Source: a virus (Duplodnaviria; Caudoviricetes). From it: a stretch of DNA of 54,067 nt. The DNA is taken from IMG/VR virus record IMGVR_UViG_3300037506_000287, positions 1 to 54,067 of that record. The stretch is one strand, 5' to 3'. Numbering within the stretch: the stretch's first letter is position 1; each line of letters starts with the position of its first letter. Positions 1 through 18,867 of the stretch are shown here, piece by piece. The translations under genes and the position numbers were made by a program. The notes under the pieces are model-generated. The model made no database searches. It saw nothing but the letters and a program-made list of their open reading frames with translations, and was not told the DNA's origin.

Positions 1-77
1 AGTTGTTCGCGCGCGAAATCCATTCGGGGTGGGATGCGTGGGGAAACGAAATAAACGGTGGCATTGACCTTCGATGA
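1..77 (+). CDS. C-terminal fragment of MT-A70-family adenine methyltransferase (truncated by window start)
   Basis: Frame from nt 3 reads (E)LFAREIHSGWDAWGNEINGGIDLR*; ELFAR...GWDxWGNE is the typical MT-A70 C-terminus. Not in the ORF track. Confidence 0.75.
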   Translation, partial: LFAREIHSGWDAWGNEINGGIDLR

Positions 78-136
78 AGAAAAGAAAAAAACAGTCTGTA
101 CGTTATAGATTCGACAAACGCCGGGGGTGCGCGCCA

Positions 137-160
137 GCGGGTGACGCATACGTTAGGCCG
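137..160 (+). repeat. attC-like right half-site, copy 1
   Basis: GCGGGTGACGCATACGTTAGGCCG with GTTRRRY core at 152-158; similar copies at 2315 and 3367. Confidence 0.5.
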
Positions 161-176
161 CTGATAAGGAATCTGT

Positions 177-545
177 ATGCCAGACCTCACCGAGCGTCGA
201 GCGAAATTTGTGTACGATGCGGCGCGGCTCGCCGCCCAAGCCGCGAACGCGCCGATAGTACCTGTTCCATGGGATGAGCGAGAAGAACCATTCAAGATGC
301 AATTTCTACGGGTAATAGAGCGACAATGTGGCGATCAACGGTCGCACTCGCCCGAAGAACTACACGGCTCATGGATGCAGGCATATTTCGAGATGGGCTG
401 GCAGTACGGCCCTGAATACAGCCGCGAGAAAAAGACACATCCCGACCTTGTGCCATACGCCGATCTCGGACAATTGGAGCGCGACAAGGATGCTGTGTTC
501 GTGGCGCTGTGTGAAATCGCCCGTCAGTGGATTTACGCGGACTAA
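177..545 (+). CDS. RyR-repeat domain phage protein
   Basis: PEELHGSWM...GWQYG...KKTHPDLVPYADL...KD matches the RyR-repeat pattern; AAGGA RBS upstream. Confidence 0.7.
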   Translation: MPDLTERRAKFVYDAARLAAQAANAPIVPVPWDEREEPFKMQFLRVIERQCGDQRSHSPEELHGSWMQAYFEMGWQYGPEYSREKKTHPDLVPYADLGQLERDKDAVFVALCEIARQWIYAD

Positions 546-552
546 CAACGGT

Positions 553-804
553 ATGAAAAGATTTTCATACTTAGAACGCCATAAATTATTTGCTGGAAAA
601 ACTATCATTTCCCACAACACAAGTTGGGGTGGTGCGTTTGCAGATCACAAGCATTGGATGGCCGAACGCGATGGAGAAGTTTGGGATTACGGCTCGTTGC
701 AATTTCTTATCGACGATGCCATCAAGGATGGATTCGATTTCGTAGTGTTGCGGGTGCATCGCAATGGTGACGCAACCCAACTGCGACTGAGCAAAGATGA
801 TTGA
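553..804 (+). CDS. hypothetical protein
   Basis: ATG 553 just after previous stop; end overlaps start of next gene. Confidence 0.6.
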
Positions 805-1846
805 TATACAAGACAAAAGCATCCCCTTCAAGTTCGTTGATCTCTTCGCGGGTATAGGTGGCTTCCGTATCGCTTTGGAGAAATTGGGCGGGAAATGCGT
901 TTTCACCTCAGAATGGGATAAGCACTGCCAAAGAACATACAAAGACTGGTTTGGCGAGATTCCGCACGGCGATGTTCGCAAGGTGAAGCCATCGGAAATT
1001 CCCGACCACGACATACTCGCGGCCGGCTTCCCCTGCCAGCCATTTTCCATCGCTGGTGTATCAAAGAAAAAGAGTTTGGGGCGCGCACACGGTTTCAAGG
1101 ATGCGACCCAGGGCACACTCTTTTTCAATTTGGCAACCATTATCAAAGTCAAGAGACCACCTGTGCTTTTCCTTGAGAACGTCAAGAACCTCCAATCACA
1201 CGACAAAGGCCGCACCTGGAAAGTAATCCATGAAACTTTGGAGTCGCTGGGCTATTGGGTCTTTCATAAGGTAATTGACGCGGCGGGCTGGGTTCCTCAG
1301 CACCGGGAGCGCATTTACATCGTCTGCTTTGACAAGAAAACTTTTCCAGCCAGGCCTCCTTTTGAGTTCCCAGCCCCTCCCGAAAAGGAACAGCCAAAGT
1401 TGGCGGATATGCTTGAGCCATCGCCCGAATCCAAATACACGCTGACAAATCATCTCTGGAACTACCTCCAGGAGTACGCAGAGCGTCACCGCGCGAAGGG
1501 AAACGGCTTTGGCTTTGGCCTTGCGAATCCGAAAGGCGTTACACGGACACTAAGCGCAAGATACTATAAGGATGGTTCCGAAATTCTAATTCCTCAGAAT
1601 GGGCGAAATCCAAGAAGGCTTACACCGCGTGAGTGTGCTCGGCTCATGGGTTTTGGCGACCATCTGCCAATAGTCGTTTCGGACACACAGGCTTATAGAC
1701 AATTCGGCAACGCCGTAGTTCCAAAGGTTGTCGAAGCCGTCGGCGGTCAAATAACAAAAGTGTTGCGGAATGGCGAGCGGGCTAACGGGGAAATGAACAG
1801 AGACGCGTTAACCCGTTCGTCAGATGGAAGGAGTCGTAAGCTATGA
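797..1846 (+). CDS. dcm: C5-cytosine DNA methyltransferase, Dcm/EcoRII-like
   Basis: FAGIGG (motif I), GFPCQPFS (IV), ENV (VI), QHRERIY (VIII), [15 protein letters not shown] and [14 protein letters not shown] resemble Dcm. Confidence 0.92.
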
Positions 1847-2292
1847 CCGTTTATGCCGAAGCCGTGAATTTCTGGCAGACAAGTCGCTCATCGTCCGACA
1901 CATGGATTAGCAAAGCCCAGCGGCAAATTGAAGAACTCGGCGGCAAGGTGCTGGGCGAAGGCTTTGGAAGCGACGCGGAGGGCCGCGCCGCTTTCATGCT
2001 TGGATTTTCCATCGGCGGGGATGCGTTCAAAATCATATGGCCCGTCCTGACAAGCAAGACGAAGAACTCATCTGCCGCGAAAATCCAGGCCGCGACGATG
2101 ATGTATCACTACGTCAAAAGCGTCTGTTTGTACGCGGTTGTGGTCGGGGCGCGGGCCGCCTTCTTCTCTCACCTGATCCTGCCAGACGGTCGCGTAGCCT
2201 CGCAAGTTGCTGGTGATGAGATTGCCGAAGTCGTGCCGCAGGTGTTTTTATTGCCAGAGCCGGTGAGGTCGGATGACGCCGGCAAAGGGTGA
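1843..2292 (+). CDS. hypothetical protein
   Basis: 149-aa ORF with ATGA overlap to dcm. Confidence 0.7.
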
Positions 2293-2314
2293 TGTCCCTA
2301 TGGAGTTGGGCGGC

Positions 2315-2337
2315 GCGGCGAACGCAAACCGTTAGGT
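2315..2337 (+). repeat. attC-like right half-site, copy 2
   Basis: GCGGCGAACGCAAACCGTTAGGT, intergenic. Confidence 0.5.
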
Positions 2338-2408
2338 GATTTCATGCCAACGACCATCGAAGTGCACTCGCTTATACTGAAAATGTGGCAGGTCGTCGAG
2401 AGGGAACC

Positions 2409-3374
2409 GTGAGATTGGTTGATGGAGTTGGTGTGACCCGCGCTGATGCGCGGCGCGGGCCGTTGAGAGACGAATGTGTGCAATGCGTGGTCACATCGCC
2501 GCCTTACTACGGTTTGCGCGATTACGGGGTAGCCGGGCAGATTGGTCTTGAACAAACGCCCACCGATTACGTGGCGGAGGTGGTGACGGCGTTCCGCGAA
2601 GTGCGACGCGTGCTGAGACCTGACGGTGTGGTGTGGCTCGTTCTTGGAGATAGCTATGCCGTCAGTGGCAAGGGCGGGAAAGAGATAGGTCTGAAGCCCA
2701 AAGACTTGATAGGAATCCCCTGGATGATCGCATTCGCACTTCGAGATGATGGTTGGTATCTGCGCTCGGATGTTATTTGGAGCAAGCCAAATCCGATGCC
2801 GGAAAGCGTGACCGACCGTCCTACGCGGGCGCACGAATACGTGTTTTTGTTGAGCAGGAGCGGGCGTTACTTTTACGATGCGGGGTCAATCAAAACGCCT
2901 CCGAAGATGGAGTTTCAGTGGGCGCGCTGGACTCCCGGACAAAACCCGCACACGCTCAACCGGCCGCGCCGTTCTGACAAACAGCGCGGTCATTCGCGTC
3001 GCCATTCCGGTTTCAATGATCGATGGGATAAGATGAGCAAACTCGAACAGAGCGCGATGGGAGCGAATGCGCGGTCGGTTTGGGAGATGGCTCCTAGCCA
3101 GTACCGGGGCGCGCACTTCGCTACTTATCCGCCTGAGCTGGTCAGGCGATGTATCCTGGCTGGAAGTCGTCCGGGAGATTTGGTATTCGATCCTTTCACC
3201 GGGAGCGGCACGACCGGACTGGTCGCCGCTGCTCTGAATCGCCGGTTTGTAGGCGGGGAACTCAACCCGAAATACATCACACAATCCGTCAAGCGGTTGA
3301 GTCCAATTGCTTTTCAAGTGTGGTTGACTGGTTTGGGAAGAAAAATGAAGGAGAACGCCGCCCCGCGCGGCTGA
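2409..3374 (+). CDS. beta-class N4-cytosine/N6-adenine DNA methyltransferase
   Basis: TSPPY catalytic motif N-terminal; HFATYP and DPFTGSGTT SAM-binding motif C-terminal; GTG 2409 after GAGGGA (ORF open from 2385). Confidence 0.9.
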   Translation: MRLVDGVGVTRADARRGPLRDECVQCVVTSPPYYGLRDYGVAGQIGLEQTPTDYVAEVVTAFREVRRVLRPDGVVWLVLGDSYAVSGKGGKEIGLKPKDLIGIPWMIAFALRDDGWYLRSDVIWSKPNPMPESVTDRPTRAHEYVFLLSRSGRYFYDAGSIKTPPKMEFQWARWTPGQNPHTLNRPRRSDKQRGHSRRHSGFNDRWDKMSKLEQSAMGANARSVWEMAPSQYRGAHFATYPPELVRRCILAGSRPGDLVFDPFTGSGTTGLVAAALNRRFVGGELNPKYITQSVKRLSPIAFQVWLTGLGRKMKENAAPRG

Positions 3375-3391
3375 CGCAAACCGTTAGGCCG
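3367..3391 (+). repeat. attC-like right half-site, copy 3
   Basis: GCGGCTGACGCAAACCGTTAGGCCG overlapping the MTase stop. Confidence 0.5.
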
Positions 3392-3430
3392 GTCGCGCTA
3401 TCGGATCGGGCGACGAATTTGGAGGTCACT

Positions 3431-3670
3431 ATGAAAGTCGGGTATCCACAAGAGGACAACCGGCCAACCTTCGATGTGTCGAACGAAGGTGTGGATCAGC
3501 ACGTAATCGGCAACAAGTTCTGTACCGAGGGCTGGTGCGGCTCTACCTACCCGATCCCCTGCCAATGCGGCGGCTTGATCCACGCCGATTTTGGCGATGA
3601 AGATAGAGAGGGAAATTACTGGCTTATTCTCAGATGTGATCGGTGTGGGGAACGGTATGACGATTATTAG
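3431..3670 (+). CDS. small Cys-rich (Zn-ribbon-like) hypothetical protein
   Basis: GGAGG RBS, ATG 3431; CxC and CxxC motifs. Confidence 0.65.
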   Translation: MKVGYPQEDNRPTFDVSNEGVDQHVIGNKFCTEGWCGSTYPIPCQCGGLIHADFGDEDREGNYWLILRCDRCGERYDDY

Positions 3671-3689
3671 TCAGCGAGCCGGGGGGAGC

Positions 3690-4500
3690 GCCGCTCGTCC
3701 GTCCCGTCCCCCCGCACCGAGCGGCGCGGCGAACGGCGATCAGGCCAGAGTAGGGTGGGGGGCTTTCCAGTAAGCCTTTCTCGCAACAACAGCGGCGGCA
3801 TCGCCCCCAAACCTCCCTCAATAGAGCAGAAGACTGAGGTAGGGACATCCGAAAAGGGGGGAGAGAACCTATAGAACGCGATGTAAATTCTGTTCTAGTG
3901 CGCGCGTATGGCCTCCCGCACCAAAACAAAAACACACCAAATCAAAACGTCCCTACCCCACCAAATATAACGCAAAGAAAAGAGAACCCCCCGCCCGCCC
4001 GCCCCCGCCCGCCCCCGCCCTTCCGCCCCGCCCCCGACTGTTCACCCCTGACTGTCCGCCCGCCCGCCCATCACCTGTGCCACAACGCTATGCCCACCGC
4101 CCTCGACTGTCCGCCCCCGCCCGCTCCGCCCCCGCCCGCGCCTAGTATCTACTCCCGATAACTAGGACTTGTCGTTGGTGGGGTAGAGTGGTGGGCGGAC
4201 AGTCGGGGGCGTGCATGACTGAAGGCAGTGGGGTAGCGTGATGGGCGCGCACGACTTCAGGCCGTGGGGTAGGGGGGTTACCTTTTGAGTGACCTGTAGT
4301 GGAGTGTGGAGTGTGGGGATGAGTGTGACGTGGAGTGTGGCGTGGCGTGTGGCGTGTGGCGTGTGGCGTGTACGCGCATGACCTCTCGCTCCCCCAACCT
4401 CATATCCTTACGGCCGCCCGTCCTCTGTGGTTGGCATCCTCGAATAGTTGGCAAACGCCAACCAATACTAACCGAGGCTATCGCTCAGTGGCGGTTGCAC
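3690..4500. other. long non-coding low-complexity region; candidate genome terminus, origin or packaging region
   Basis: C-rich (CCCG)n tracts 3987-4140, G/T-rich (GTGGC)n tracts ~4296-4370, nested inverted repeat centred ~4154; overlapping ORFs are low-complexity artefacts. Confidence 0.55.
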
Positions 4501-4530
4501 GTGCTAATGTAGATGCACAATCAATCAACG

Positions 4531-4559
4531 CCCGCCGCCCGAACAAATAAGGGCGGCGG
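4531..4559 (+). promoter_or_regulatory. conserved early-gene hairpin, copy 1
   Basis: CCCGCCGCCC-GAACAAATAA-GGGCGGCGG, 7 nt before ATG 4567. Confidence 0.8.
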
Positions 4560-4566
4560 TCAAAAC

Positions 4567-4845
4567 ATGACTTTTTGCGAATTTCTGAAGGCTGCTTACG
4601 ACATGCGCGCGCCGGTCAAAGACTGGCGGGGTAGAGGGGGGGTACCCTACACTCATCAAAACCACTTTTTCATTGAATGTGGGCCAAGTGATGTGTGGGA
4701 GGCGTCCCCCGAGGGGAATGTCTGGTATCAAAACACACTGTGGGTGCTTAAAAATGTACCCCTTGGGGCGGGGTACACGTTTTACTCTGCTTTGGGTGAC
4801 TACACCCTGCCAGCGAAAGAGGGCTCCCCAACGTACGAACGGTAA
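4567..4845 (+). CDS. early hypothetical protein
   Basis: ATG immediately after hairpin copy 1. Confidence 0.6.
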   Translation: MTFCEFLKAAYDMRAPVKDWRGRGGVPYTHQNHFFIECGPSDVWEASPEGNVWYQNTLWVLKNVPLGAGYTFYSALGDYTLPAKEGSPTYER

Positions 4846-4868
4846 CGCCACTCAAAAGCGATAACGCG

Positions 4869-4898
4869 CCCGCCGCCCGAACAGATAAGGGCGGCGGG
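4869..4898 (+). promoter_or_regulatory. conserved early-gene hairpin, copy 2
   Basis: CCCGCCGCCC-GAACAGATAA-GGGCGGCGGG, 5 nt before csx15 ATG. Confidence 0.8.
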
Positions 4899-4903
4899 AA
4901 GAT

Positions 4904-5287
4904 ATGATTATCATCAACTTCTCTCACCCCCTCACCGATGAGCAGTTGGCGCGCGTGCAGGCGCTCACCGGCCATCCGGTGGAGCGCCTCATCAACATGC
5001 CGGTACAGTTTGATCACCAGCAGCCCTTCGAGCCTCAGCTGGCCGCCCTGCTGGGCGGCCTCGACCTCCCGCCCGACGAGTGGCAGACGGCCCCAATTAT
5101 CATCAATCCGCCATCCCTCAACTCCATCACCGCCCTAGTGCTGGCCGAACTGCACGGGCGCATGGGCTACTTCCCGCCCATTGTCCGGCTCCGTCCAGTT
5201 GCCGGCTCCATGCCACCGCGATATGAAGTGGCGGAAGTCTTCAACTTGCAGCGCACCCGCGACGCCGCGCGAATCAAGCGCCAGTAA
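4904..5287 (+). CDS. csx15: CRISPR-associated protein Csx15 homologue
   Basis: NFSHPLT, QFD...PF..Q, EWQT.P, LAELHGRMGYFP, EVAEV.NLQ..R..AR match Chloroflexota Csx15 over the whole length. Confidence 0.88.
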   Translation: MIIINFSHPLTDEQLARVQALTGHPVERLINMPVQFDHQQPFEPQLAALLGGLDLPPDEWQTAPIIINPPSLNSITALVLAELHGRMGYFPPIVRLRPVAGSMPPRYEVAEVFNLQRTRDAARIKRQ

Positions 5288-5289
5288 TC

Positions 5290-5335
5290 GTCGCACCGCC
5301 GCCCGTATCCGTTTGGGCGGCGGGGAGATTGAAAC
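5290..5335 (+). repeat. hairpin copy 3 (loop inverted) inside a solitary CRISPR-repeat-like unit
   Basis: GTCGCA-CCGCCGCCC-GTATCCGTTT-GGGCGGCGG-GGAGATTGAAAC. Confidence 0.5.
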
Positions 5336-5385
5336 CCCGTCCCGGGAGATTATGCCTGGGACACATTCTGGAAAGGAGAAATAAA

Positions 5386-5799
5386 ATGGGAGCCGACTTG
5401 TTTTTGGCCTCGGTATGTAACGAGGCCAGAGAAAAGTACTTGGCCTCTTATAAAGAGGCGTTGCGGTTGCGTGACAACGCAGCCACAACAGTCGAGTTCG
5501 ACATCTATCAAAAAGATGTCGAACGGTACTCCGGGTTAATGAACCCGGAGAATGGATACTTCAGGGACAGCTACAACGATAGCTGTCTCTTGTGGCGATG
5601 GGGTATGTCCTGGTGGGACAACCCGTTTGTTGAGGACGGAACAATAAGCCCTGAAAGGGCTGAGGAATTCCTGTTGGTCTTGAACCACATTATCACTCCC
5701 CCGGACTGGGGGGAGTACTTCGACGACAAAAAGAGGCGGCTTATCCGCCTCCTGGAAACAGCCATCTCCAAGGGCGAGAGCATAATCGCCGACGTCTAG
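5386..5799 (+). CDS. early hypothetical protein
   Basis: AGGAG RBS; MGADL... start, GYFRDSYN motif. Confidence 0.75.
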   Translation: MGADLFLASVCNEAREKYLASYKEALRLRDNAATTVEFDIYQKDVERYSGLMNPENGYFRDSYNDSCLLWRWGMSWWDNPFVEDGTISPERAEEFLLVLNHIITPPDWGEYFDDKKRRLIRLLETAISKGESIIADV

Positions 5800-5805
5800 A
5801 TAGTG

Positions 5806-5831
5806 CCCGCCGCCCGAACAAGGGCGGCGGG
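5806..5831 (+). promoter_or_regulatory. conserved early-gene hairpin, copy 4 (short loop)
   Basis: CCCGCCGCCC-GAACAA-GGGCGGCGGG, 9 nt before ATG 5841. Confidence 0.8.
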
Positions 5832-5840
5832 GAGAAGAAC

Positions 5841-6113
5841 ATGGGAAAACCGAAAATCGTTCTGGCGGCAGAGGTCGCTAGGGCAGCTGGTTATGAATAC
5901 ATGGCCTGCATAATTAAGTCGGTGAATCACATCGACTATTGGCAAGTTGTGCCAATAGGCGACATACTGCGGGCCGGTAGATGGCCCGCAGCCGGAAAGC
6001 TGTTTAGTTACAAACATGGGGGGACTAGTATCACGGTGGGGGTCACTACATCCATGCTACCAATGCAAACTATCAGCCGCAGGGAGGCCCTGCGGCTTGT
6101 GGATAACGACTGA
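5841..6113 (+). CDS. early hypothetical protein
   Basis: ATG after hairpin and GGAG. Confidence 0.65.
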   Translation: MGKPKIVLAAEVARAAGYEYMACIIKSVNHIDYWQVVPIGDILRAGRWPAAGKLFSYKHGGTSITVGVTTSMLPMQTISRREALRLVDND

Positions 6114-6125
6114 AAGGTACGACTT

Positions 6126-6344
6126 ATGATGGCTGCATTACAGGCCCTGATCGCCCGGATAGAGGGGCAGGGAGTCCCGCTCCCGGAGGATGAGCGGGAC
6201 TGGCTGGAATCGATAAAAACGCCGGATGATCTAGTGAACTATACACCGGATCATACCGGTAGATGGCAAGCCCTAGCTTGGGACGCGGCAAAGGCCCTGG
6301 GCTTGTCGAATTGGGACGCCGGCTCCGTTGCCGGTGATCACTGA
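6126..6344 (+). CDS. early hypothetical protein
   Basis: 72-aa acidic ORF in series. Confidence 0.6.
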   Translation: MMAALQALIARIEGQGVPLPEDERDWLESIKTPDDLVNYTPDHTGRWQALAWDAAKALGLSNWDAGSVAGDH

Positions 6345-6355
6345 CAAGCGCTAGG

Positions 6356-6628
6356 ATGTTAAGAATCCAAGAATACACCGTCAAGGGGGTGTTACAGGAA
6401 GGAAATTGCCAATATTGTCGTTGGTATCTAACCAACGGCGAAACGGCATTCGAACACGTCGGCTACATATACTGTAGCCGACAGTGCGCCAGAGACGACT
6501 GGAAAATCAGGGTTAAGGCCGAGGTGCAAGCGGCCAACCAGAGATGGGCCGCCGCCCGAACAAATAAGGGCGGCGGGGGAAAAGAATATGATCGAACTGA
6601 AGTTAATCAAAGAAGACAAAGGGGATAG
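6356..6628 (+). CDS. early hypothetical protein with CxxC...CxxxC Zn-finger-like motif
   Basis: CQYC and YCSRQC; the C-terminus reads through hairpin copy 5. Confidence 0.55.
   Translation: MLRIQEYTVKGVLQEGNCQYCRWYLTNGETAFEHVGYIYCSRQCARDDWKIRVKAEVQAANQRWAAARTNKGGGGKEYDRTEVNQRRQRG
6549..6576 (+). promoter_or_regulatory. conserved early-gene hairpin, copy 5
   Basis: CCGCCGCCC-GAACAAATAA-GGGCGGCGG, 11 nt before ATG 6588. Confidence 0.8.
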
Positions 6629-6800
6629 AAAGTTTGTCTTCAGGGGCGTGGAGTTCTGGGTTAACAACAGGAACCTGATTGGTTGGTGCAGTGACTGGAA
6701 CATTGTCGATGTCCTAGTCAAAGAGGGGCTAGCCAAAATCATATTCTACCCAAACTGTTACAACCACACTGACTACCTTTTGCTTGACCCTGACCGCTGA
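6588..6800 (+). CDS. early hypothetical protein
   Basis: ATG after hairpin. Confidence 0.6.
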   Translation: MIELKLIKEDKGDRKFVFRGVEFWVNNRNLIGWCSDWNIVDVLVKEGLAKIIFYPNCYNHTDYLLLDPDR

Positions 6801-6871
6801 CTGTCCGCGCTAGAGTGATGAGCGCATTACCAATTAGTACCAACACCCGAACTAAGGGCGACGAGGCCTGT

Positions 6872-7024
6872 ATGAGTAATTACTGGTTGATCAGCTATCT
6901 GTATAACTCAACTACGCAGGCGCAGTTTGTCATCCGCGCCCGCGACAAGTACGAGGCATTATGGGCGGCCCGTTGGTTGGTGCGGGCCACTATTATCGAT
7001 TGCTTGCCCTATCCTGGCGAGTAA
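6872..7024 (+). CDS. early hypothetical protein
   Basis: ATG 6872 after degenerate hairpin CCCGAACTAAGGGCGACG and GAGG. Confidence 0.5.
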   Translation: MSNYWLISYLYNSTTQAQFVIRARDKYEALWAARWLVRATIIDCLPYPGE

Positions 7025-7039
7025 AAAAGGAGACTCTCG

Positions 7040-7750
7040 ATGAACCGATACCCTGGAACGTATGCTGAGGCCGAGGCTTACCTCGGCCAGAAATTAGGGC
7101 GGCCCATTGCGAACAATACCCGGATTGTTAGAGGTGATGGGCATATCGCCCTGACCCTGCACGAGAACACGATAGTGGAGTATACCCCCTCAGGGGTATC
7201 GCTTTATTCGTCGGGGTGGCGCACCCCGACGACAAAAGACCGCATCAACCGCGTGATTGAACAGAGGGGATATACAGTATTTTCTGTTGCCGGGGTGTGG
7301 TATGTAGCCCCTAACCGCCGGGAGGCGGCCGTACCATTCGCGGAGGGCTTGACCCTCCGGGCCGACGGCACTTTGACTGGTGCCGCCGAGGCCGAGGATG
7401 CTAAGAGGTCGCTGACTCTCCGAAAGTCAATAAAGGCGTACGCGAAAGCTTACGCCGCGGAGTTTGGGGCGGGCCGGATAGACCGGCCCGGCCCGGGAGA
7501 TTGTGTGTACTGCCGCCTAGAGGCAAGCGGTACGGAGGCAATCCCCAATGACCATTTAGAAATTCACTTGGCTGATGGTTATTATGTACCCTCACTGTTG
7601 GTGACTGCCGCCCGAACGTGCCCGGACAAACTGTCCAGTTACGCGTCAGGGTTTATCGAAGAGTGGGCCGCAACTGAAGATATCGGAGGGACGGCCCAGA
7701 GGCAGATTGAATCCTGCATCAAGGCTTACCTGATACGGCGGCTAGGATGA
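7040..7750 (+). CDS. conserved phage hypothetical protein
   Basis: AGGAG RBS; GWRTPTTKDRIN motif seen in phage early proteins; CxxC. Confidence 0.75.
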   Translation: MNRYPGTYAEAEAYLGQKLGRPIANNTRIVRGDGHIALTLHENTIVEYTPSGVSLYSSGWRTPTTKDRINRVIEQRGYTVFSVAGVWYVAPNRREAAVPFAEGLTLRADGTLTGAAEAEDAKRSLTLRKSIKAYAKAYAAEFGAGRIDRPGPGDCVYCRLEASGTEAIPNDHLEIHLADGYYVPSLLVTAARTCPDKLSSYASGFIEEWAATEDIGGTAQRQIESCIKAYLIRRLG

Positions 7751-7774
7751 TTGGATTGGATTGGATTGGATTGG
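7750..7774 (+). repeat. (ATTGG)5 microsatellite
   Basis: ATTGGATTGGATTGGATTGGATTGG. Confidence 0.9.
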
Positions 7775-7795
7775 GCGAGTAAGGCTTACTCGCCC
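7773..7795. promoter_or_regulatory. palindromic site GAGTAAG-N-CTTACTC (extended to 23 bp)
   Basis: GGGCGAGTAAG-G-CTTACTCGCCC, intergenic. Confidence 0.7.
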
Positions 7796-7841
7796 GCTCA
7801 CGTCTGCCCACGCAGTTCTCTAGAAAGCGAGAGGTGAAAGT

Positions 7842-8608
7842 ATGAACGGGTTTAAGTTCCTATCGAATGGGTGCACTTATTTTCAGGGAGTAGAGACTCA
7901 ATATCTGCTCCCCCGTCCCGGCGAGAAGTGGGGGCCTTGGCTGGAGCACCCTCAGCCCGCCTTGCCAGATGGGAAGGATTGCGGGGAGGGACGTTATCAT
8001 GTCATGAAAAAACTTGACGCATCTTACGCGCCCCAGTCTTGGTGGCCGTGGTTTGCGCAGGCAGAAAATGTAGTGGGGGAGAGTCGTCAGAAATTCTCGG
8101 CTACGCGTATCCGGTTACGCCGGATACGCCGCGACACGTTCTGGTACTTGATCCGGCGCGGATACCTCCGCGGGGCCAACCTGTACGGGGCCGACCTGCG
8201 CGATGCCGACCTGAGCGGGGCAAACCTGCACGGGGCAAACCTGAACGAGGCAAACCTGTACGGGGCCAACCTGCGCGAGGCCGACCTGAGCGGGGCCTCC
8301 CTGCACGGGGCAAACCTGCGCGGATACCTCCGCGGGGCCGACCTGCGCGAGGCCGACCTGAGCGGGGCAAACCTGCGCAGGGCCGACCTGAGCGAGGCCG
8401 ACCTGAGCGGGGCCGACCTGAGTGGAGCAAACCTGCACGGGGCAAACCTGCACGGGGCAAACCTGCACGGGGCAAACCTGCGCAGGGCCGACCTGAGCGA
8501 GGCCGACCTGAGCGGGGCAAACCTGCACGGGGCCGACCTGACCTGTACGGGGCCGACCTGCGCGAGGCCGACCTGAGCGGGGCCGACATGTGGAATGTAA
8601 GGCGATGA
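7842..8608 (+). CDS. pentapeptide-repeat protein with a frameshift near the 3' end
   Basis: Long run of A(D/N)Lxx repeats; ACCTG duplication at ~8536-8545 moves the final repeats into the frame ending at 8608. Confidence 0.85.
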
Positions 8609-9006
8609 AACCGGAACGTTGGTATAGGTGGCGCAATGCTCAGATTCGAGGAAAGGCGCGTAAAGCGCTCGAACATCCCGGCCTGCTACGCACTCGACTG
8701 CGGGACGCATTGCGTCGTTTGCAGGTGATTGTAATCGAGTATGAGTCGAGGGTAACCGATGCAAGGGGGTTGGATTGGTACTATGACGCGCTAATCGAGT
8801 CGCGCGGGCAACGTGCCTATATCGATCTGCATGTGACTGAGATAGCTGGTGCGAAGAAGACCAACCTCATGCGTGATCAGTGGAAGCGTAAGGCCCTGGC
8901 TGCCTCCCCGGTGCCCGTCATCGGACTGGAGAGGCGTAAGACGGAGGAAATGATGGCCGATATAACCAGGGAACTCATCCGCATCCGACTGAGCCCTAAA
9001 AAGTAA
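8605..9006 (+). CDS. hypothetical protein, possible restriction-endonuclease-like (DUF559-like) fold
   Basis: ATGA overlap; YDALI...YIDLH...RDQWK...PVIGL pattern. Confidence 0.55.
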   Translation: MKPERWYRWRNAQIRGKARKALEHPGLLRTRLRDALRRLQVIVIEYESRVTDARGLDWYYDALIESRGQRAYIDLHVTEIAGAKKTNLMRDQWKRKALAASPVPVIGLERRKTEEMMADITRELIRIRLSPKK

Positions 9007-9063
9007 GACGCGGAATAGCGCCCACCGCTGAACTGATAAGGGCGACTAAAAGGACAAATCTGT

Positions 9064-9405
9064 ATGGTCTACCTGCTCCACCTCACCCAAGTCATGCCGC
9101 GCGGTATAGCCCGCAACGGCAAGCCGTTACAAGCCGGCCATTACGTCGGTTACACCCAACTTAATCTTGAGCTAAGGCTGACACACCACCGCAACGGTAC
9201 GGGCGCACGCATGTTGCAGGTGTGCCGGGAACGGGGCGGAGATTGGGTCGTGGCGAGGGTGTGGCCGGATGGGGATAGAGTGTGGGAGCGTCGAATCAAA
9301 CGACAGAAAAACGCCGCTCGCCTATGCCCGATATGTGCGGGCGAGGCTGCCCTTCGCAGACTGAAAGGAACTGGCGGGATGCCAAAGTCGCCACCGCTTA
9401 TCTGA
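9064..9405 (+). CDS. GIY-YIG superfamily nuclease
   Basis: VYLLH...HYVGYT...RL..HR.G.GAR...ERRIK...CPIC. Confidence 0.75.
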   Translation: MVYLLHLTQVMPRGIARNGKPLQAGHYVGYTQLNLELRLTHHRNGTGARMLQVCRERGGDWVVARVWPDGDRVWERRIKRQKNAARLCPICAGEAALRRLKGTGGMPKSPPLI

Positions 9406-9434
9406 GAGTCCTAAATGAAACCAGGAGAAAGGCA

Positions 9435-9695
9435 ATGATAATCGGTATTGGCACACCCCGGACTGTTGTGGATGAGTATCTCCGACTAATAGGGGAAGAG
9501 TGGAAACCTGACGGTCTGTGGAAATGCCTGTGCGGACTGGTGCAAAGCGGAGAGTTATTGCAGATTGTGTATGAGGGCGACTTGATTCACCACTACGAAT
9601 GTTCGCAGTACGGATGCGCCGGCAGGGTTACAGCGGAGGAAGACTCAGCCCCCCACCCTGCCCCGGTATCGGCGGTATCCCTCCCGGAGGGGTAG
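9435..9695 (+). CDS. hypothetical Cys-containing protein
   Basis: AGGAG RBS, ATG 9435. Confidence 0.5.
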   Translation: MIIGIGTPRTVVDEYLRLIGEEWKPDGLWKCLCGLVQSGELLQIVYEGDLIHHYECSQYGCAGRVTAEEDSAPHPAPVSAVSLPEG

Positions 9696-9843
9696 GTGCA
9701 ACCGACTGCCTTTCGGTGGGCATCAGTTCCATCAGGTCAATGCCGTGCTCCTCGGCAATCCTGACTATCTGTGCCATCAGGTTTCGTAACATCGAGACGG
9801 TAGCTTCGCGGTCGTCACCCTTGGACGGTTGATTGGGTAGCAT
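9628..9843 (-). CDS. lone antisense small protein with helical N-terminus and Pro/Gly tail
   Basis: GGAG RBS, ATG 9843, own promoter and leader hairpin. Confidence 0.65.
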   Translation of the reverse strand: MLPNQPSKGDDREATVSMLRNLMAQIVRIAEEHGIDLMELMPTERQSVAPTPPGGIPPIPGQGGGLSLPPL

Positions 9844-9855
9844 GGCATTCTCCAA

Positions 9856-9901
9856 CATGCAGACGAGTGGTGAAAGGAAGAAAACCCCACTCGTCTGCAT
9901 G
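9856..9901 (-). promoter_or_regulatory. 15-bp perfect-stem hairpin in the 5' leader of the antisense gene
   Basis: CATGCAGACGAGTGG...CCACTCGTCTGCATG with a 16-nt loop. Confidence 0.7.
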
Positions 9902-9909
9902 ATGGGAAC

Positions 9910-9938
9910 ATTGTAAGGAAGACCGAAGGAAATCGCAA
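9910..9938 (-). promoter_or_regulatory. sigma70-type promoter
   Basis: TTGCGA-N17-TACAAT on the minus strand. Confidence 0.65.
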
Positions 9939-9950
9939 ACGAGGGAACCA

Positions 9951-10283
9951 ATGCACACTCTAACCACAATCTACAAACTAAAATCGCTGTACTACAGATG
10001 TGGCGATAATCTGTACAGCCATCTCGGGGAGAAAGAGTGCGCCAATTGCGGGTCACCTCTGCTCACCCCTCCCGACCTATGGCCCCCGGTTGTGCGACTG
10101 GCGATGGGATGGGATCGGTCGAGCTACATTGCTGACGTAGATCACCTAACCGATGTTGACCGGTGGGGGCTAATCCTCGCATTCGAGAAAGGTTTACTCG
10201 AACGAGCTATGGTGACAATTGAGGGTACGTTTCTCGTTGTGTACGCCCGTCGTCAGTGGTTTGACCTGGGTTACTATCGATGA
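9951..10283 (+). CDS. Zn-ribbon hypothetical protein
   Basis: GAGGG RBS; RCG...CANC. Confidence 0.6.
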   Translation: MHTLTTIYKLKSLYYRCGDNLYSHLGEKECANCGSPLLTPPDLWPPVVRLAMGWDRSSYIADVDHLTDVDRWGLILAFEKGLLERAMVTIEGTFLVVYARRQWFDLGYYR

Positions 10284-10723
10284 ACCCTAACCAAGACTAT
10301 CCATCACATGCCGACGGGCCGGATAAAATAACGCCACCAATGAACCGCCGCCAGTTCCTAAAACTCTCCACTCTCCTGACCGGTTTGTCGTTGATCCCTA
10401 TACTGCCGAGGATATCACCGGCCTTGGAACTCCGCGGGGAATGGGAAATCATCAGCCTGATGTACACTCCGACATTCCAGGAGGCGTGGCTGACCGTTAT
10501 CGTGGATGGAGACGTGAAGATCAGATGGAATGGAAGGCAGGGCACGGCGGTTAGTATGGCTGGGCCGTTGGAGGTGGCGCAGTCGTTTGAGATACGCGCC
10601 GCCGAGGGAGAATTGCAAGTCAGCTCTCGACAGGTAGAAGGCAGATTTATCCGGCTGCGAGTAGACCGCTTTATCATCCCTACCTGTCAAGCCTTCCTGC
10701 CCATCGTCAGTAGAGACGATTGA
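10280..10723 (+). CDS. putative Tat-exported protein (start may be 10340)
   Basis: NRRQFLK twin-arginine motif plus hydrophobic stretch; C-terminal FLPIVSR. Confidence 0.65.
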   Translation: MNPNQDYPSHADGPDKITPPMNRRQFLKLSTLLTGLSLIPILPRISPALELRGEWEIISLMYTPTFQEAWLTVIVDGDVKIRWNGRQGTAVSMAGPLEVAQSFEIRAAEGELQVSSRQVEGRFIRLRVDRFIIPTCQAFLPIVSRDD

Positions 10724-10724
10724 T

Positions 10725-10997
10725 ATGGATAATCTCCGCGCCGAGATTGCGGCGCGGTATCGAGGTCGGTGCGTAGTGTGTCTTCGGCCTGCGAGCGATG
10801 TGCATGAGATAGTCCCTCGCTCGCAAGGCGGGAAAGTCGATTTGGAGAACAGTGTGACGTTGTGCCGGGAATGTCACACGGAAGTTCATGAGACCGGCAC
10901 AAGACTCTCATATGATTTGTTGCGCGAGCGGGCTGCGAAAGTGCTCGCAGGTATCAATGAAGAAAGTCACTCTCAACTCCAACCGTATAACGATTGA
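10725..10997 (+). CDS. HNH endonuclease
   Basis: CVVC...VHEIVPRSQGG...N...LCRECH..VH. Confidence 0.85.
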   Translation: MDNLRAEIAARYRGRCVVCLRPASDVHEIVPRSQGGKVDLENSVTLCRECHTEVHETGTRLSYDLLRERAAKVLAGINEESHSQLQPYND

Positions 10998-12549
10998 GTT
11001 CTTATACTCAGCGCCTCTGGTCGCTGCGGTCAAGACCCTGCCTGACCGTCGGTGGAGCCCAACTACAAAGGCGTGGTCAACGCCGGTCTCTGCCTATCAC
11101 GCCCGGCGAATTGTGGAAGTGCTCGGCCCCCTCGGATTTGTCATCCCCAAGGAAATCCTAGACCTGACGACCGGGCCGACCGTCCCTCAGGTAGATCGCG
11201 CGGCTATCGAGAAAGCCTTTCCCGACCTGCACTCCTATCAGGTCGATAACGTAGTGAAGTGCCTCGAATGCCGGGGCCGCTACCTCAACGCCGATGACAT
11301 GGGGCTTGGCAAAACTTTCACCACCATCGCGTCGCTGGCGATGCTGGGCTGGCCGACTACCATCGTCGTGTGTCTATCGTCCGTGCTGTACAACTGGCAG
11401 GACGAGATCGAACTGTGGGGCGGTAAGAAGGCGGCAGTATTGCCGGCGCAAGGAGTCAGCCCCATCTCCATCTGCTCTTTCGATTATGCCCGGGCGAACG
11501 GCGAACGGCTGGCCGGCCAATTCGAGTGTGTAGTTGTGGACGAGTGTCAGAACATCAAGAACCCCAAGGCCGGACGTACTCAAGGGGTGCAGGCGTTGGC
11601 CCGCAAAGCCAAATACTTTCTGCCTCTCAGTGGCACCCCCATGCTCAACCGACCCATAGAACTGTGGCCGACACTCAATCTCATCGATCCGTCTGGTTAC
11701 AACAGCATATTCCAATTTGGTCTACGCTATGCAGACGGGAAGCAGAAGTCGGTAGGTCGAGGCAAGCTGGTGTGGGACTTCAACGGGGCGAGCAATCAGG
11801 CCGAATTGAAGCAACGTTTGGAACCGATCATGGCCCGCCACACCAAGGCCGACTCCGGCGTTCAATTGCCCGAGGTCATTCGCACCAAGTTGCGCGTTGA
11901 GTACCCCGCCGAGATTAAACACCAAATGAATGAGGCGAGCCGGAACATCGTCGCCTATCTACGCGAGACCGGGGGACGGTGGAAGGGTGCGGAGAAAGCC
12001 GAGACCCTTGTTTTGATAAATCAGTTGCGGCGTCTGGCCGGCAAAGGCAAGGTCTCTCACGCTATCGAGCAAGCCGTCAACCTGCTGGAACAAGACCAAG
12101 CGGTTGTGATGTATTGCCAGCATCGGGACATCGTACAGACTTGTGCCGATGCGCTGAACGAGTATCGAGTGGGCGTCATCACCGGCGACGTGCCGGCCGT
12201 GGAACGAAAGCGACTGACCGACGAGTTTCAATCCGGTTCGCTGGACGTGATGATTATCACGGACGCCGGTGGAGTGGGGATCAACCTGTATCGGGCCAGC
12301 CATATCATCACGGTCGAACGGGACTGGGTACCGGCCAATGAAGAACAGGCCGAGAGTCGTCTGCATCGCCTCGGCCAGAAGAACACCGTCAATAATTGGA
12401 TACTGGTCGGCGGCGGGTTCGATACCAGCCTCGACCGACTGATCGACTCGAAGCGGGCAATTTTCAGGAACCTGCTTGGGCAGGATGAAGTCCCGACCCT
12501 GCTGAAAGACCTGATTGAATTGGAGTTCGGCGTGGAATTGATTGAATGA
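10957..12549 (+). CDS. SNF2-family helicase with HARP-like N-terminus
   Basis: DDMGLGKT, DECQ, LSGTPMLNRP, QAESRLHRLGQ; N-terminal VKTLPDRRWSP..KAW. Confidence 0.9.
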   Translation: MKKVTLNSNRITIEFLYSAPLVAAVKTLPDRRWSPTTKAWSTPVSAYHARRIVEVLGPLGFVIPKEILDLTTGPTVPQVDRAAIEKAFPDLHSYQVDNVVKCLECRGRYLNADDMGLGKTFTTIASLAMLGWPTTIVVCLSSVLYNWQDEIELWGGKKAAVLPAQGVSPISICSFDYARANGERLAGQFECVVVDECQNIKNPKAGRTQGVQALARKAKYFLPLSGTPMLNRPIELWPTLNLIDPSGYNSIFQFGLRYADGKQKSVGRGKLVWDFNGASNQAELKQRLEPIMARHTKADSGVQLPEVIRTKLRVEYPAEIKHQMNEASRNIVAYLRETGGRWKGAEKAETLVLINQLRRLAGKGKVSHAIEQAVNLLEQDQAVVMYCQHRDIVQTCADALNEYRVGVITGDVPAVERKRLTDEFQSGSLDVMIITDAGGVGINLYRASHIITVERDWVPANEEQAESRLHRLGQKNTVNNWILVGGGFDTSLDRLIDSKRAIFRNLLGQDEVPTLLKDLIELEFGVELIE

Positions 12550-12561
12550 AAGGAGATTGCG

Positions 12562-12813
12562 TTGGCAAAGATCATCGCCCGATTACGGGAGACACGCACC
12601 GACCGTACAGACTATCGCAAGTATCAGCCGATTTTTGAGTTCGAGAAAGTCTTTCTCGAACTGGAGGTAAAGGAGGTTAAACCAAAGATCGTCGAATGGA
12701 ATGGGCAGGAGGTTGAGGGTATCGTCTTAACCCTCAAAGGCTTGGAGGCGTTGTTGGAATTAACCGCCGCCGCTGTAGATCGGGTGCAAGAAAAGCACCT
12801 GAATTCACTCTGA
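12562..12813 (+). CDS. hypothetical protein
   Basis: AGGAG RBS, TTG start. Confidence 0.65.
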   Translation: MAKIIARLRETRTDRTDYRKYQPIFEFEKVFLELEVKEVKPKIVEWNGQEVEGIVLTLKGLEALLELTAAAVDRVQEKHLNSL

Positions 12814-12828
12814 AAGGATCAATCTGAA

Positions 12829-13626
12829 ATGAAATCGAGAATCAGCAAGACACATTATTTGAGGGGGACGGCCACCCTCAAGAAAACTTCATTTGGAACG
12901 TGGGCAGTGCGTATCGCCTACGAGGAGAATGGCCGCTCGGTGACGAAAACGCTGGAGTTGGGTCGCAAGGACGTACCCGAAAATATGATGGAAGGGGAGT
13001 TCTACGTATCACTCAAATCCGACGGCACCCGACTGTACGACCTCCGTCCCACGGATGGAGTCTACATTGGGATGTTCTCCGGGTTCCAACGCAAGAAAGA
13101 CCCCAAGGGCGGGATGTTGCCGCCCGAACCAAGGCTCGACCCGGGGGGAGAGCGCGCTTCTAAAGACGGCAACGGCACTTGGTTTGCCGAGCCTAGAAAG
13201 ACGGCGACCGCGCTCTTCCGCATCACGCGCGGCCAGTTCAAAGGGCTGGAGGTCTCGGCCTTCGTGCCCTACATCTTCGTCCTCGACGAAGAGACCGGGA
13301 TGTGCCTGATTGAGGGGCGCAAAGGCGAGGTCGATCAGGTCAACGAATTTATCCAGTTCACCTACGGCAGCGATGAAATCTACATCCCGTTCTCTGCCAA
13401 CGTCCTGCCTGATCTGGAACCCATGCTGCAAGACGTCGAGCAGGAAATCCAGTTGGAGGTGGTGAATGGAATAGTGAGAAAGTTCATACCGATGGCCGAC
13501 GACGACCGGCCCAAGGTGAAGGCCAAAGTCAAGGCGAAGGTCAAGAAAGATAAATTGGAGGCCGACGACTTCAAGGCCAAGCCGGTCAAAGCCACCGTCG
13601 TGTCGCGCACCCCCGCCCGGCGATGA
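12829..13626 (+). CDS. putative ssDNA-binding/replication protein
   Basis: Beta-rich, located between helicase and primase, Lys-rich tail; function inferred from position only. Confidence 0.45.
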   Translation: MKSRISKTHYLRGTATLKKTSFGTWAVRIAYEENGRSVTKTLELGRKDVPENMMEGEFYVSLKSDGTRLYDLRPTDGVYIGMFSGFQRKKDPKGGMLPPEPRLDPGGERASKDGNGTWFAEPRKTATALFRITRGQFKGLEVSAFVPYIFVLDEETGMCLIEGRKGEVDQVNEFIQFTYGSDEIYIPFSANVLPDLEPMLQDVEQEIQLEVVNGIVRKFIPMADDDRPKVKAKVKAKVKKDKLEADDFKAKPVKATVVSRTPARR

Positions 13627-14525
13627 GCACCTACGAGGACTTCATCCGGTATGCCGATAGCCGCTCGCGTGCGAGCGGCTATCTGATGGTGAAGTGCCCC
13701 TACCATGACGACAGCACAGCTTCTCTCGCCGTCCGCACTAACGGCGGCTGGCGATGCTACGGCTGCGGACTGCGCGGGACGTGGGAACCTCTGCTGAAAG
13801 ACCTGAGGGATGGGGCCAGTTCAGCGAAGATAGTGGAGAAGAAAGAGAGTGTTGTCTCTGCTTCTCGGCCCATCATCCCCGAAGGGCAGGAAGCCCGACT
13901 GGCGTTCATGCGTCAGGCCCACCGAACTCTGATCGACCGCACCTATGCGCGTCGGTACCTCGACGAACGGGGGGTCAATGGCGCTATCGAGACGAGCTAC
14001 CTCGGCTGGCATCAGGGCTGGATCGTCATCCCTATCGGAGATGTGGTGTATATGGAGAACAGCAACACGGCCCGCATCCGTCACGTCGACGGACTGGTGA
14101 TGCGGGCCACGCCTCTGGTCGAGGGGGCAACCGGGATGCGCTTCCACATCATCGCCGGGCAGAAGCCAATCCTTCTCACTAACGACCGTAACCATTCGGA
14201 GGACTATCTCTTCGTCGTCTTCGGCCTCTTCGACTATCTGTCACTAGACGCGTTGGGTTACCCGGTCGCCACTCCCACGTGCGGCAAACTATCTCTGCTG
14301 GTGGATGACCTGCCCAAACACAAACGGGTCATCCTCATCCCTGACGAGGGGGAGGAGACGGAGGCTTTTGAATACCGAAGGCGGATCGGGCCGTCCGCCG
14401 ACGTGTTATTGCTCAAATACCCCTGCAAATGCAAAGACCCTAATGATTTACTGAGATCGAACGGGGGAGTGTGGTCATTGACGTACCAGTTGAACCGATA
14501 CCTAGACAAAGGGAAGGTGAAGTGA
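13623..14525 (+). CDS. DNA primase (CHC2 Zn finger + TOPRIM-like)
   Basis: CPYHDD..AS...CYGC; YLDERG; IPDEGE; KDPND. Confidence 0.8.
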   Translation: MSTYEDFIRYADSRSRASGYLMVKCPYHDDSTASLAVRTNGGWRCYGCGLRGTWEPLLKDLRDGASSAKIVEKKESVVSASRPIIPEGQEARLAFMRQAHRTLIDRTYARRYLDERGVNGAIETSYLGWHQGWIVIPIGDVVYMENSNTARIRHVDGLVMRATPLVEGATGMRFHIIAGQKPILLTNDRNHSEDYLFVVFGLFDYLSLDALGYPVATPTCGKLSLLVDDLPKHKRVILIPDEGEETEAFEYRRRIGPSADVLLLKYPCKCKDPNDLLRSNGGVWSLTYQLNRYLDKGKVK

Positions 14526-16204
14526 CCCCCGATACCCTCTCCTACGTCATCGGCCCGCCGCCGTTTGAGGCGTACGCAGACGAGCCGTACGCTTTGGACT
14601 ACGAAATCTACAACCAGGGGCCGCGCTTGCACCGGCCTGACGGCGATTTCGCGTTGCTCTCCATCGCTGCGCGTGGGCAAGTGTATGTCAGTCTCGACAA
14701 GCAGGACGCGCGCACGGCGGCCGAGCGGATGCGAGCGGGACGGGCAGTGATGCACAATGCTTTGTACGACTTGCGCTACCACCGCCAGTTCGGGTTTCCA
14801 CAACCCGACGATATTGCCGATACCCTGCTGCTAGAGCGGGTCAAGTTCAATGGGCTATACAACGCTTTCGGGTTAGATGACCTGGCCCGGCGGCATCTCG
14901 GCCTGAGAATGAATAAGAGCGTCCGAGATCGGTTCGTCAAAGGTGACGCGATAGATGATGAGATGATTCGCTATGCCGCCTTTGACGCTGTAGTGACATT
15001 GGAGGTGTTTCAAAGGCAACTCGGTCTCAATGAAGGCAGTGATGACGACCGTCAAGACTTCCGACTCTTCGAGAAGATTGAGAAGCCGATGATTTCGGCG
15101 ATCCTCGACATGCCGCCTATCCGTTTGGAGAGTCGGCGGTGGTTGGAACTGGCCAAACGAGAGAAGGCCAAGGCGTTACGATTGGAACGGGAGTTGGGTT
15201 TCAATCCCCGGTCTCCAGTGCAAGTGAGAGACGTGTTGATGGCACGTCACGGCCTGACGCTGGAAAGCACTGCCGAGAAAGTGATCGAGAAATTTCGAAA
15301 CGATTACCCCGAGATCGAGGCCATCCTCGACTGTCGAGGCGCAAGCAGAAACGCGTCCACCTACGGTGAAAACTGGATTGAGGAGTTCCTCGAGGACGGC
15401 TATGTGTATGCGGGGTGGTCGGTGATCGGGGCCAGCACCAGTCGCATGAGCAGCAGCGAGCCGAACTTGCAGAACATCCCCGTCCGCAAGACCCCGGAGT
15501 ACCGGGAGTGTTTCATCGCCAGTCCCAATCACAACATGGTGTCAGTGGATGTCAGCCAGCAGGAACCGCGCGTCCTGGCATATCTGTCGGGGGACAAGGG
15601 ACTGCTCGCCAATTTCCAGACCGGGAAGAACTGTCACCTGTTGGTGGCCGAGGATGTGTATGGCCGTCCTGTTCAAAAAGATGAGGACGAATACAAATTC
15701 GCCAAGAGCGTGAACCTCGGCATCGGCTACGGGCTGACCCCGGAGGGGCTGGTACAACGAAGTTCGGCTACCCTCGCGCAGGCGGAGTATGTCATCCATC
15801 GTTACTTCGAGCGGTATCCCGGCGTGCCGCTGTACATCAACCGGTATCGGCGTTTTGCGAAGGAACACGGTTTCACGCGGAGTCCCACCGGGCGGCGCAT
15901 CTATATCAACCCCTACATCCGCAAGAGTGAGAACAACGCCATCAACAATCCCATCCAATGCGGCGCGGCGGAGGCGACCAAGCTCGCCGTCGGTTACTTC
16001 CATCGAGAATGTCAGGCCCGAGGCTGGCCCTACCGTATCGTTGCTTTGGTGCACGACGAGGTAGTGGCGGATGTGCCGAATCGATTGACCAAACCATACG
16101 TCGCCCTAATCCAGGAATGCTTGCGGCTGGCAGCGAATGAAATCATCCCCGACATCCCGTTCGGGTCTGACTACCACATCGGGTCGAGTTGGTCGGAGGT
16201 TTAG
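14522..16204 (+). CDS. polA: family A DNA polymerase with 3'-5' exonuclease
   Basis: DYE, HNALYD, YAAFDA exonuclease motifs; SSSEPNLQNIP, DVSQQEPR, KSVNLGIGYG, VHDE. Confidence 0.95.
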   Translation: MTPDTLSYVIGPPPFEAYADEPYALDYEIYNQGPRLHRPDGDFALLSIAARGQVYVSLDKQDARTAAERMRAGRAVMHNALYDLRYHRQFGFPQPDDIADTLLLERVKFNGLYNAFGLDDLARRHLGLRMNKSVRDRFVKGDAIDDEMIRYAAFDAVVTLEVFQRQLGLNEGSDDDRQDFRLFEKIEKPMISAILDMPPIRLESRRWLELAKREKAKALRLERELGFNPRSPVQVRDVLMARHGLTLESTAEKVIEKFRNDYPEIEAILDCRGASRNASTYGENWIEEFLEDGYVYAGWSVIGASTSRMSSSEPNLQNIPVRKTPEYRECFIASPNHNMVSVDVSQQEPRVLAYLSGDKGLLANFQTGKNCHLLVAEDVYGRPVQKDEDEYKFAKSVNLGIGYGLTPEGLVQRSSATLAQAEYVIHRYFERYPGVPLYINRYRRFAKEHGFTRSPTGRRIYINPYIRKSENNAINNPIQCGAAEATKLAVGYFHRECQARGWPYRIVALVHDEVVADVPNRLTKPYVALIQECLRLAANEIIPDIPFGSDYHIGSSWSEV

Positions 16205-18807: not shown

Positions 18808-18867
18808 AGCGCCGGATTGTCTGTCTCTCGGTCATCCTATGCAAGTGGGAAACCCAGGAGGTGAAGA

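Follow-up and report, generated by a model that had tools for sequence, protein, structure and literature searches.

A stand-alone Csx15 protein is encoded in the genome of an uncultured freshwater tailed phage, and the proposal that it acts there as an anti-type III CRISPR protein is a credible hypothesis that is supported by the analysis presented below. The stretch of DNA analysed (the window) is an entire IMG/VR virus record of 54,067 bases, which is linear and about 85% complete according to CheckV. On the combined evidence we regard it as probable that a host-derived, catalytically complete Csx15 was captured by this phage, and that it both sequesters and cleaves cyclic tetra-adenylate (cA4) in head-to-tail filaments early in infection.

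The original prediction, made from the letters of the DNA, described a full-length protein of 127 residues with signature motifs of Csx15. Its reading frame was found exactly so, on the plus strand and with an ATG start (Table 1), and the three motifs are present in its translation (N5-T11, E59-T62 and L80-P91), where they occupy columns that are invariant, or almost so, in an alignment of 25 Csx15 sequences. The family assignment is upheld by the NCBIfam equivalog model NF040560 (CAS_Csx15), which gives a strong match (167.2 bits, E = 1.7e-49; the cut-off is 35) that runs the whole length of the model, with residues 2-126 of the protein on profile positions 1-125 of 125. The PADLOC Csx15 model also matches (1.4e-37), while Pfam (at E up to 1) and PHROGs searches with the protein recovered no family. 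A phmmer search of PDB sequences likewise connects the protein to solved Csx15 structures, namely 9teu, which is named csx15 (E = 3.5e-19), 9ylu (6e-18), in which the match falls on the Csx15 domain of a Schlafen fusion, and 9tet (1.7e-6). We infer that 9teu and 9tet represent CliCsx15 or PfCsx15.

Klimavicius et al. (bioRxiv, October 2026, 10.64898/2026.10.26.761840) report that the H8A and R125A mutations of HaCsx15 abolish cleavage and not binding, that R118A abolishes binding, and that activity requires a composite site between stacked dimers in a filament; they give R119, R123 and R126 as the CsCsx15 equivalents of HaCsx15 residues. The window protein possesses both halves of such a site: the catalytic histidine of the "head" face (H8 in both HaCsx15 and CsCsx15), which aligns with a histidine of 9teu, and the C-terminal arginines R119, R123 and R126 (CsCsx15 numbering) of the "tail" face. 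These four residues and H84 are invariant in all 25 aligned Csx15 sequences, and are also kept in 8/8 of the other distinct viral copies. Their presence cannot separate a nuclease from a sponge, because conserved interface residues have also been described for PfCsx15, which is reported to sponge cA4 with very limited or no cleavage; slow cleavage of cA4 is reported for CliCsx15 (Chi et al., 10.64898/2026.01.21.700848).

The AF2 model of the protein (pLDDT 91.1) predicts a Rossmann-like fold, with a central sheet of five strands (2-5, 28-31, 65-68, 93-98 and 107-113) flanked by the intervening helices, as in Csx15. In structure it comes closest to SAVED domains (Cap5 7rwk, Z 7.6; 9r8s, Z 7.3; 8ysq, Z 7.2), followed by CARF proteins with Z of 5-6; a Foldseek search of the PDB, using a library to April 2026 in which no Csx15 entry appeared, gave nothing at E <= 0.001. 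These Z values, though middling, fit the published relationship, in which SAVED is said to derive from a duplicated Csx15 and to use the same head-to-tail composite active site (10.64898/2026.10.26.761840). The second-best neighbour, 9r8s, is the viral SAVED ring nuclease AcrIII-2, superposed with an rmsd of 3.2 over 110 residues at 6% sequence identity. AcrIII-2 and CalpL SAVED contain two Csx15-like or CARF-like halves per chain, whereas the window protein is a single 127-residue domain that must dimerise; the match to SAVED chains spans one half (residues 118-235 of 9r8s).

The genome around csx15 is that of a phage, with hallmark genes on either side. The plus-strand block encodes two DNA methyltransferases, a helicase, a primase, a family A DNA polymerase, a UvsX-like recombinase and an exonuclease, and the minus-strand block encodes the major head protein, the large terminase, a virion protein and an open reading frame for 2,846 residues. 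Neither tRNA genes nor a tyrosine integrase were found in the window. The csx15 gene is placed in the leftward block of small genes, ahead of the replication genes, and this position and strand suggest that it is expressed early; among the sequencing runs listed as containing the stretch, there is no recorded RNA run. Its description as the second gene of an array is fair by position, as the genes preceded by a hairpin (see below) begin at 4564 and csx15 follows next. The claim that the window has no other cas locus also holds within the searches made: a Cas10/Cmr2 HMM and tblastn with Anaerolineae Cas10, Csm3, Csm4, Csm5, CARF effector and Cas1 found nothing, and a repeat scan found no CRISPR-like array.

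Table 1. The csx15 gene and the intergenic copies of the hairpin in the window
Feature	Position	Strand	Remarks
Hairpin, first copy	4534..4557	+	Ahead of the 93-aa gene at 4564-4845, the first of the array; repeat family D3
Hairpin upstream of csx15	4872..4895	+	10-bp stem, then a GGGAAG motif and the ATG at 4904; ends 9 nt before the start
csx15	4904..5287	+	ATG start; 127 aa; stand-alone Csx15 with H8, H84, R119, R123 and R126
Hairpin downstream of csx15	5298..5321	+	11 nt past the csx15 stop; inverted copy
Hairpin	5809..5828	+	Ahead of the gene at 5841-6113
Hairpin	6551..6574	+	Ahead of the gene at 6588-6800

Several other features of the left genome end deserve mention. The two DNA methyltransferase genes that open the plus-strand block (797-3374) match phrog_116 with 299 bits and phrog_67 with 217 bits. 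Just ahead of the hairpin-preceded genes, at about 3670-4560, lies a gene-poor, GC-rich stretch of roughly 900 bp; it contains C-rich direct repeats (family D4) as well as both arms of an inverted repeat (I2, 4029-4060 and 4180-4211). Word depth spikes at 4204-4404 in both of the sequencing runs used here (X1 and X2), suggesting that this piece is repeated or common to other genomes. The immediate downstream neighbour of csx15 probably starts at the ATG at 5386, which has AAGGAG 7 nt upstream, rather than at the TTG at 5329. Further along, at 7842-8576, is a gene for a pentapeptide-repeat protein of 244 residues (Pfam, 171 bits), which is a possible DNA mimic. This gene is up to 83% identical to Anaerolineae genomes at the nucleotide level, has a GC content at third codon positions (GC3) of 0.77, and is a second, apparently host-derived gene of the early region. 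Together with csx15, the methyltransferase and pentapeptide-repeat genes give the left genome end the look of a counter-defence region.

To what group of cellular copies the phage gene belongs is indicated by its relatives, of which 3,192 were recovered at E <= 0.001. The closest homologues (87%, 79% and 74% identical) are all metagenomic, and those that are named come from Chloroflexi/Anaerolineae. A genome scan found a Csx15 relative in 535 species genomes, the best 80 of which (about 58-70% identical) are almost all Anaerolineae (Chloroflexota), the rest being a few Armatimonadota and one Calditrichota. A quick maximum-likelihood tree (IQ-TREE, 152 rows, with 13 of 156 loci left out for a match under 115 residues or an internal stop) places the window copy in a group of six with the 74-87% identical variants P0002, P0003, P0004, P0005 and P0008 (support 97%). 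This group is sister (support 80) to P0009 and the host type III-A locus L091, and all are nested in Anaerolineales. The phage gene thus sits inside host copies, which is consistent with the capture from a host that had been proposed. As an aside, L091, which of the host type III-A loci is nearest to the phage copy, has a tandem pair of csx15 genes at 9612-10378, whose products share 37% and 75% identity with the window protein.

The composition of the gene and nucleotide-level comparisons were also considered. The GC3 of csx15 is 0.81, within the range of host csx15 genes (0.72-0.86), as against 0.53-0.68 for its small neighbours; in the early region, a host-like composition marks two genes, csx15 and that of the pentapeptide-repeat protein. 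When the first 20 kb (1-20000) were compared with 401 Anaerolineae-class genomes at the DNA level, the listed matches fell on csx15, the pentapeptide-repeat gene and one methyltransferase segment, the first two giving nearly all of them; this search scored two candidates per genome, too few for it to serve as a test for spacers, and its tally of 302 out of 401 includes the unpublished genomes G352 and G395. A separate blastn-short comparison of the window with 169 loci (1.69 Mb) revealed no spacer-like match outside csx15, the pentapeptide-repeat gene and the related phage described below. Taken together, the nesting in the tree, the GC3 values and the nucleotide matches point to capture from an Anaerolineae host, and on these sequence comparisons the phage itself probably infects Anaerolineae (Chloroflexota).

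The original prediction also suggested looking for type III systems in the host, and the likely hosts do have type III-A loci that bear csx15. In Anaerolinea thermolimosa the operon reads Cas10/Csm1 (601 bits), Csm3, Csm4, Csm5, a CARF/DxTHG protein, an unknown protein, Csx15 and Cas1, with Cas6 further on, and a Cas10-like match was present in all five host genomes examined (5/5), in open reading frames that end 5-8 kb upstream of csx15. By tblastn, a type III gene occurs in the flank of csx15 in 36 of the 46 genome loci that measure 12 kb or more (32 with cas10), in 10/21 long metagenome loci and in 0/9 viral loci; these counts are lower bounds, since every query was drawn from five Anaerolineae loci. 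The window copy differs from the cellular ones in the same way, being phage-encoded with no cas gene nearby, as is expected of a viral copy. In other respects it resembles the cellular proteins HaCsx15, CsCsx15, CliCsx15 and PfCsx15, with which it has in common the family (by a full-length HMM match), the size, the catalytic histidine, the C-terminal arginine triad and the predicted Rossmann-like fold. As for cellular Csx15 in general, 25% of the genomes that have it have no type III locus.

These observations allow a mechanism to be proposed. A tailed phage, probably one with Anaerolineae as hosts, would have taken up a host csx15 gene and, by analogy with characterised Csx15 proteins, the gene product is expected to form a dimer. 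On sensing phage RNA, the type III-A Cas10 of the host would make cA4, which the Csx15 dimers might hold between them as they stack head to tail into filaments, such that the signal is sequestered. Cleavage of cA4 to linear products could then take place at a composite site, to which one dimer contributes H8 and the next R126 together with R119 and R123. The CARF effector of the host would consequently remain inactive, and the phage would evade type III signalling immunity. Of relevance to this scheme, Chi et al. (10.64898/2026.01.21.700848) report that over-expressed Csx15 neutralised a cA4-activated effector in vivo.

An alternative that we consider unlikely is that csx15 is a recent passenger without a role in the phage, acquired from a host by illegitimate or hairpin-mediated recombination and not yet lost. 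The host-like GC3, so unlike that of the small neighbours, would also fit a recent and still neutral acquisition. Moreover, the sole complete relative of the window phage (97% complete, with a capsid protein 57% identical and a syntenic structural module) does not have Csx15, and the gene is therefore accessory and dispensable in the lineage. The immediate downstream neighbour gives no sign of retention across sister phages either: none of its seven homologues lies on a contig whose length matches those of the closest (74-87% identical) Csx15 variants, and none thus points to these variants residing in such phages. Scans of IMG/VR for further relatives of the window phage gave none with the polymerase and a 37%-identical fragment only with the terminase. 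Against a passenger stands the intact reading frame, which keeps every invariant residue of the family despite a divergence of at least 13% from its nearest relative, and the start of the gene, where the hairpin and the ribosome-binding junction match those of the neighbouring genes.

This hairpin, with a perfect GC stem of 9-10 bp, has six copies in the window against 0.01 expected, all on the plus strand and all within 4534-6574. Five are intergenic (Table 1), and one lies within the csx15 coding sequence, where it may be due to chance. The copy upstream of csx15 folds as RNA with -30.1 kcal/mol (z -5.0), and the hairpin also precedes three unrelated genes near csx15. In four of the five intergenic cases a purine-rich motif, of the GGGAAG/GGGGAG type or similar, comes after it, with an ATG 6-12 nt further on (4564, 4904, 5841 and 6588). 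The conservation at these junctions covers just about 35 nt, and no shared promoter was found upstream of the hairpins. The position of the hairpin resembles that of the T4-type PeSL motifs as these are described (PMC2839356, PMC4122927); a probe of IMG/VR with the hairpin found no other contig.

The distribution of Csx15 in other viruses speaks further against a neutral passenger. Nine other IMG/VR loci encode Csx15 proteins with 44-61% identity to the window protein; they range in GC content from 46 to 66%, are scattered in the tree and have no other gene in common with the window, save for a pentapeptide-like open reading frame in one of them (L004). In this otherwise unrelated locus the pentapeptide-like frame is directly upstream of csx15. 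In some of the nine, genes for phage tail or replication proteins lie no more than about 7 kb away. The lack of other common genes, the varied GC content and the scatter in the tree fit repeated independent capture. At least eight of these copies are distinct, on contigs with no other gene in common with the window, and keep all the key residues; such conservation in these and in the intact phage gene argues for repeated selection. A tblastn search of 50,697 GenBank phage records found no Csx15.

A second alternative accepts a function for the phage protein and changes its target: Csx15 might act on other or additional cyclic-nucleotide signals, such as the trinucleotides of CBASS, or serve as a sensor or regulator of the phage's own programme. 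Klimavicius et al. report that in vitro CsCsx15 and HaCsx15 cleave cA3 to cA6 as well as 3'3'3'-cAAG and 2'3'3'-cAAA, which are signals of CBASS, and they raise a broad-spectrum use by viruses (10.64898/2026.10.26.761840); the SAVED domains that are the nearest structural neighbours of the window protein are those of CBASS. The same preprint describes a strong link of cellular Csx15 to Cas10 and a weak one to CBASS, and the host copies nearest to the phage gene reside in type III-A operons, which makes this second alternative quite improbable relative to an action on the type III signal.

It could further be proposed that the early region is a hairpin-bounded cassette array that swaps in host-derived counter-defence genes, and that the inverted hairpin behind csx15, with its CRISPR-repeat-like head and tail, is a solitary-repeat RNA anti-CRISPR that partners Csx15 against the host type III-A system. 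Compared by eye, the loop of the hairpin downstream of csx15 is close to the reverse complement of those in the remaining copies, which marks it as an inverted copy. When the unit at 5290-5335 was compared by eye with the 36-37-nt repeats beside host type III-A/csx15 loci, the ends and the general shape alone were found in common, although arrays with the same 8-nt tail occur at four host loci (L073, L110, L120 and L123); the Rfam CRISPR-DR families gave no match to the unit. We consider this scenario to be very unlikely. In the contigs of X1 and X2, alternative joins and loose ends are located at the hairpins, as if there were strain variants differing at the cassette borders. The neighbouring segment 5301-5388 takes in the hairpin together with the ribosome-binding site that serves the gene at 5386. 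It gave a weak match to the Rfam "freshwater-2" cis-regulatory motif that stays below threshold (24.1 bits, where the gathering score is 49.9; E 0.71) and is probably due to chance.

Finally, that an assembler fused the csx15 segment to phage DNA, or that it is host contamination, is hardly credible: the composition of csx15 is unlike that of the flanking small genes and host csx15-like contigs of 90-95% likeness occur in the same runs, but the host-like part is the 384-nt reading frame alone with no host flank (csm genes, cas1) alongside, the phage's own hairpin repeat brackets the gene, and contigs of X1 traverse both junctions with zero mismatches. These contigs, from a public run that may be the sample of origin, cover 4342-4954 and 5152-6197 at a word depth of 10-16, like the remaining phage; among the contig pieces listed for X2, which comes from a different study, there was no junction-bridging piece. 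The csx15 segment is a genuine part of the phage genome, and the chimera with host DNA that the original prediction had allowed for is not borne out.

Having set these alternatives aside to the degrees stated, we return to the capture of a complete Csx15 directed against type III signalling. The idea that viral Csx15 is an anti-CRISPR has already been published: Klimavicius et al. (10.64898/2026.10.26.761840) put forward the name AcrIII-3 as a proposal for viral Csx15, and no use of this name was found in the literature outside their preprint. They report one viral homologue in ClusteredNR and more than 20 in env_nr and IMG/VR, describe the copies as rare and mostly prophage-borne, and treat their activity as hypothetical. 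The window gene is a Csx15 homologue in a virus genome, namely an IMG/VR virus record with hallmark genes on both sides of it, and like the vCsx15/AcrIII-3 copies of the preprint it is viral, metagenomic and a proposed viral ring nuclease. It differs from most of them in belonging to a free phage record that has a replication module of its own and in which no tyrosine integrase was found. With AcrIII-1 (DUF1874) it has the same proposed role, that is, virus-encoded destruction of cA4 against type III signalling. The two families are unrelated, since the window protein is not DUF1874, having no Pfam match of any kind, and they also differ in their reported speed, AcrIII-1 being a fast enzyme and Csx15 a slow one that depends on filaments.

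Two papers have doubted that Csx15 is of use to viruses. As reported, a survey of 28,114 cultured phage genomes (Hoikkala et al. 2024) found AcrIII-1 in 36, Csx20 in 5, Csx16 in 2 and no Csx15. Chi et al. (10.64898/2026.01.21.700848) state that Csx15 is not seen in phages and may be no useful anti-CRISPR, and they argue that type III systems yield so much signal that sponging may be futile. For Klimavicius et al., who found rare and mostly prophage copies, the doubt over its value to viruses lies in the slow turnover of Csx15. Against this background the window offers a clean test case, as it combines a canonical Csx15 with all key residues, a free tailed-phage genome and a plausible host group that has csx15 in type III-A operons. 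If the phage protein does protect against type III immunity, a third family of viral ring nucleases would be confirmed, and it would follow that a slow, filament-forming enzyme or sponge can serve as an anti-CRISPR.
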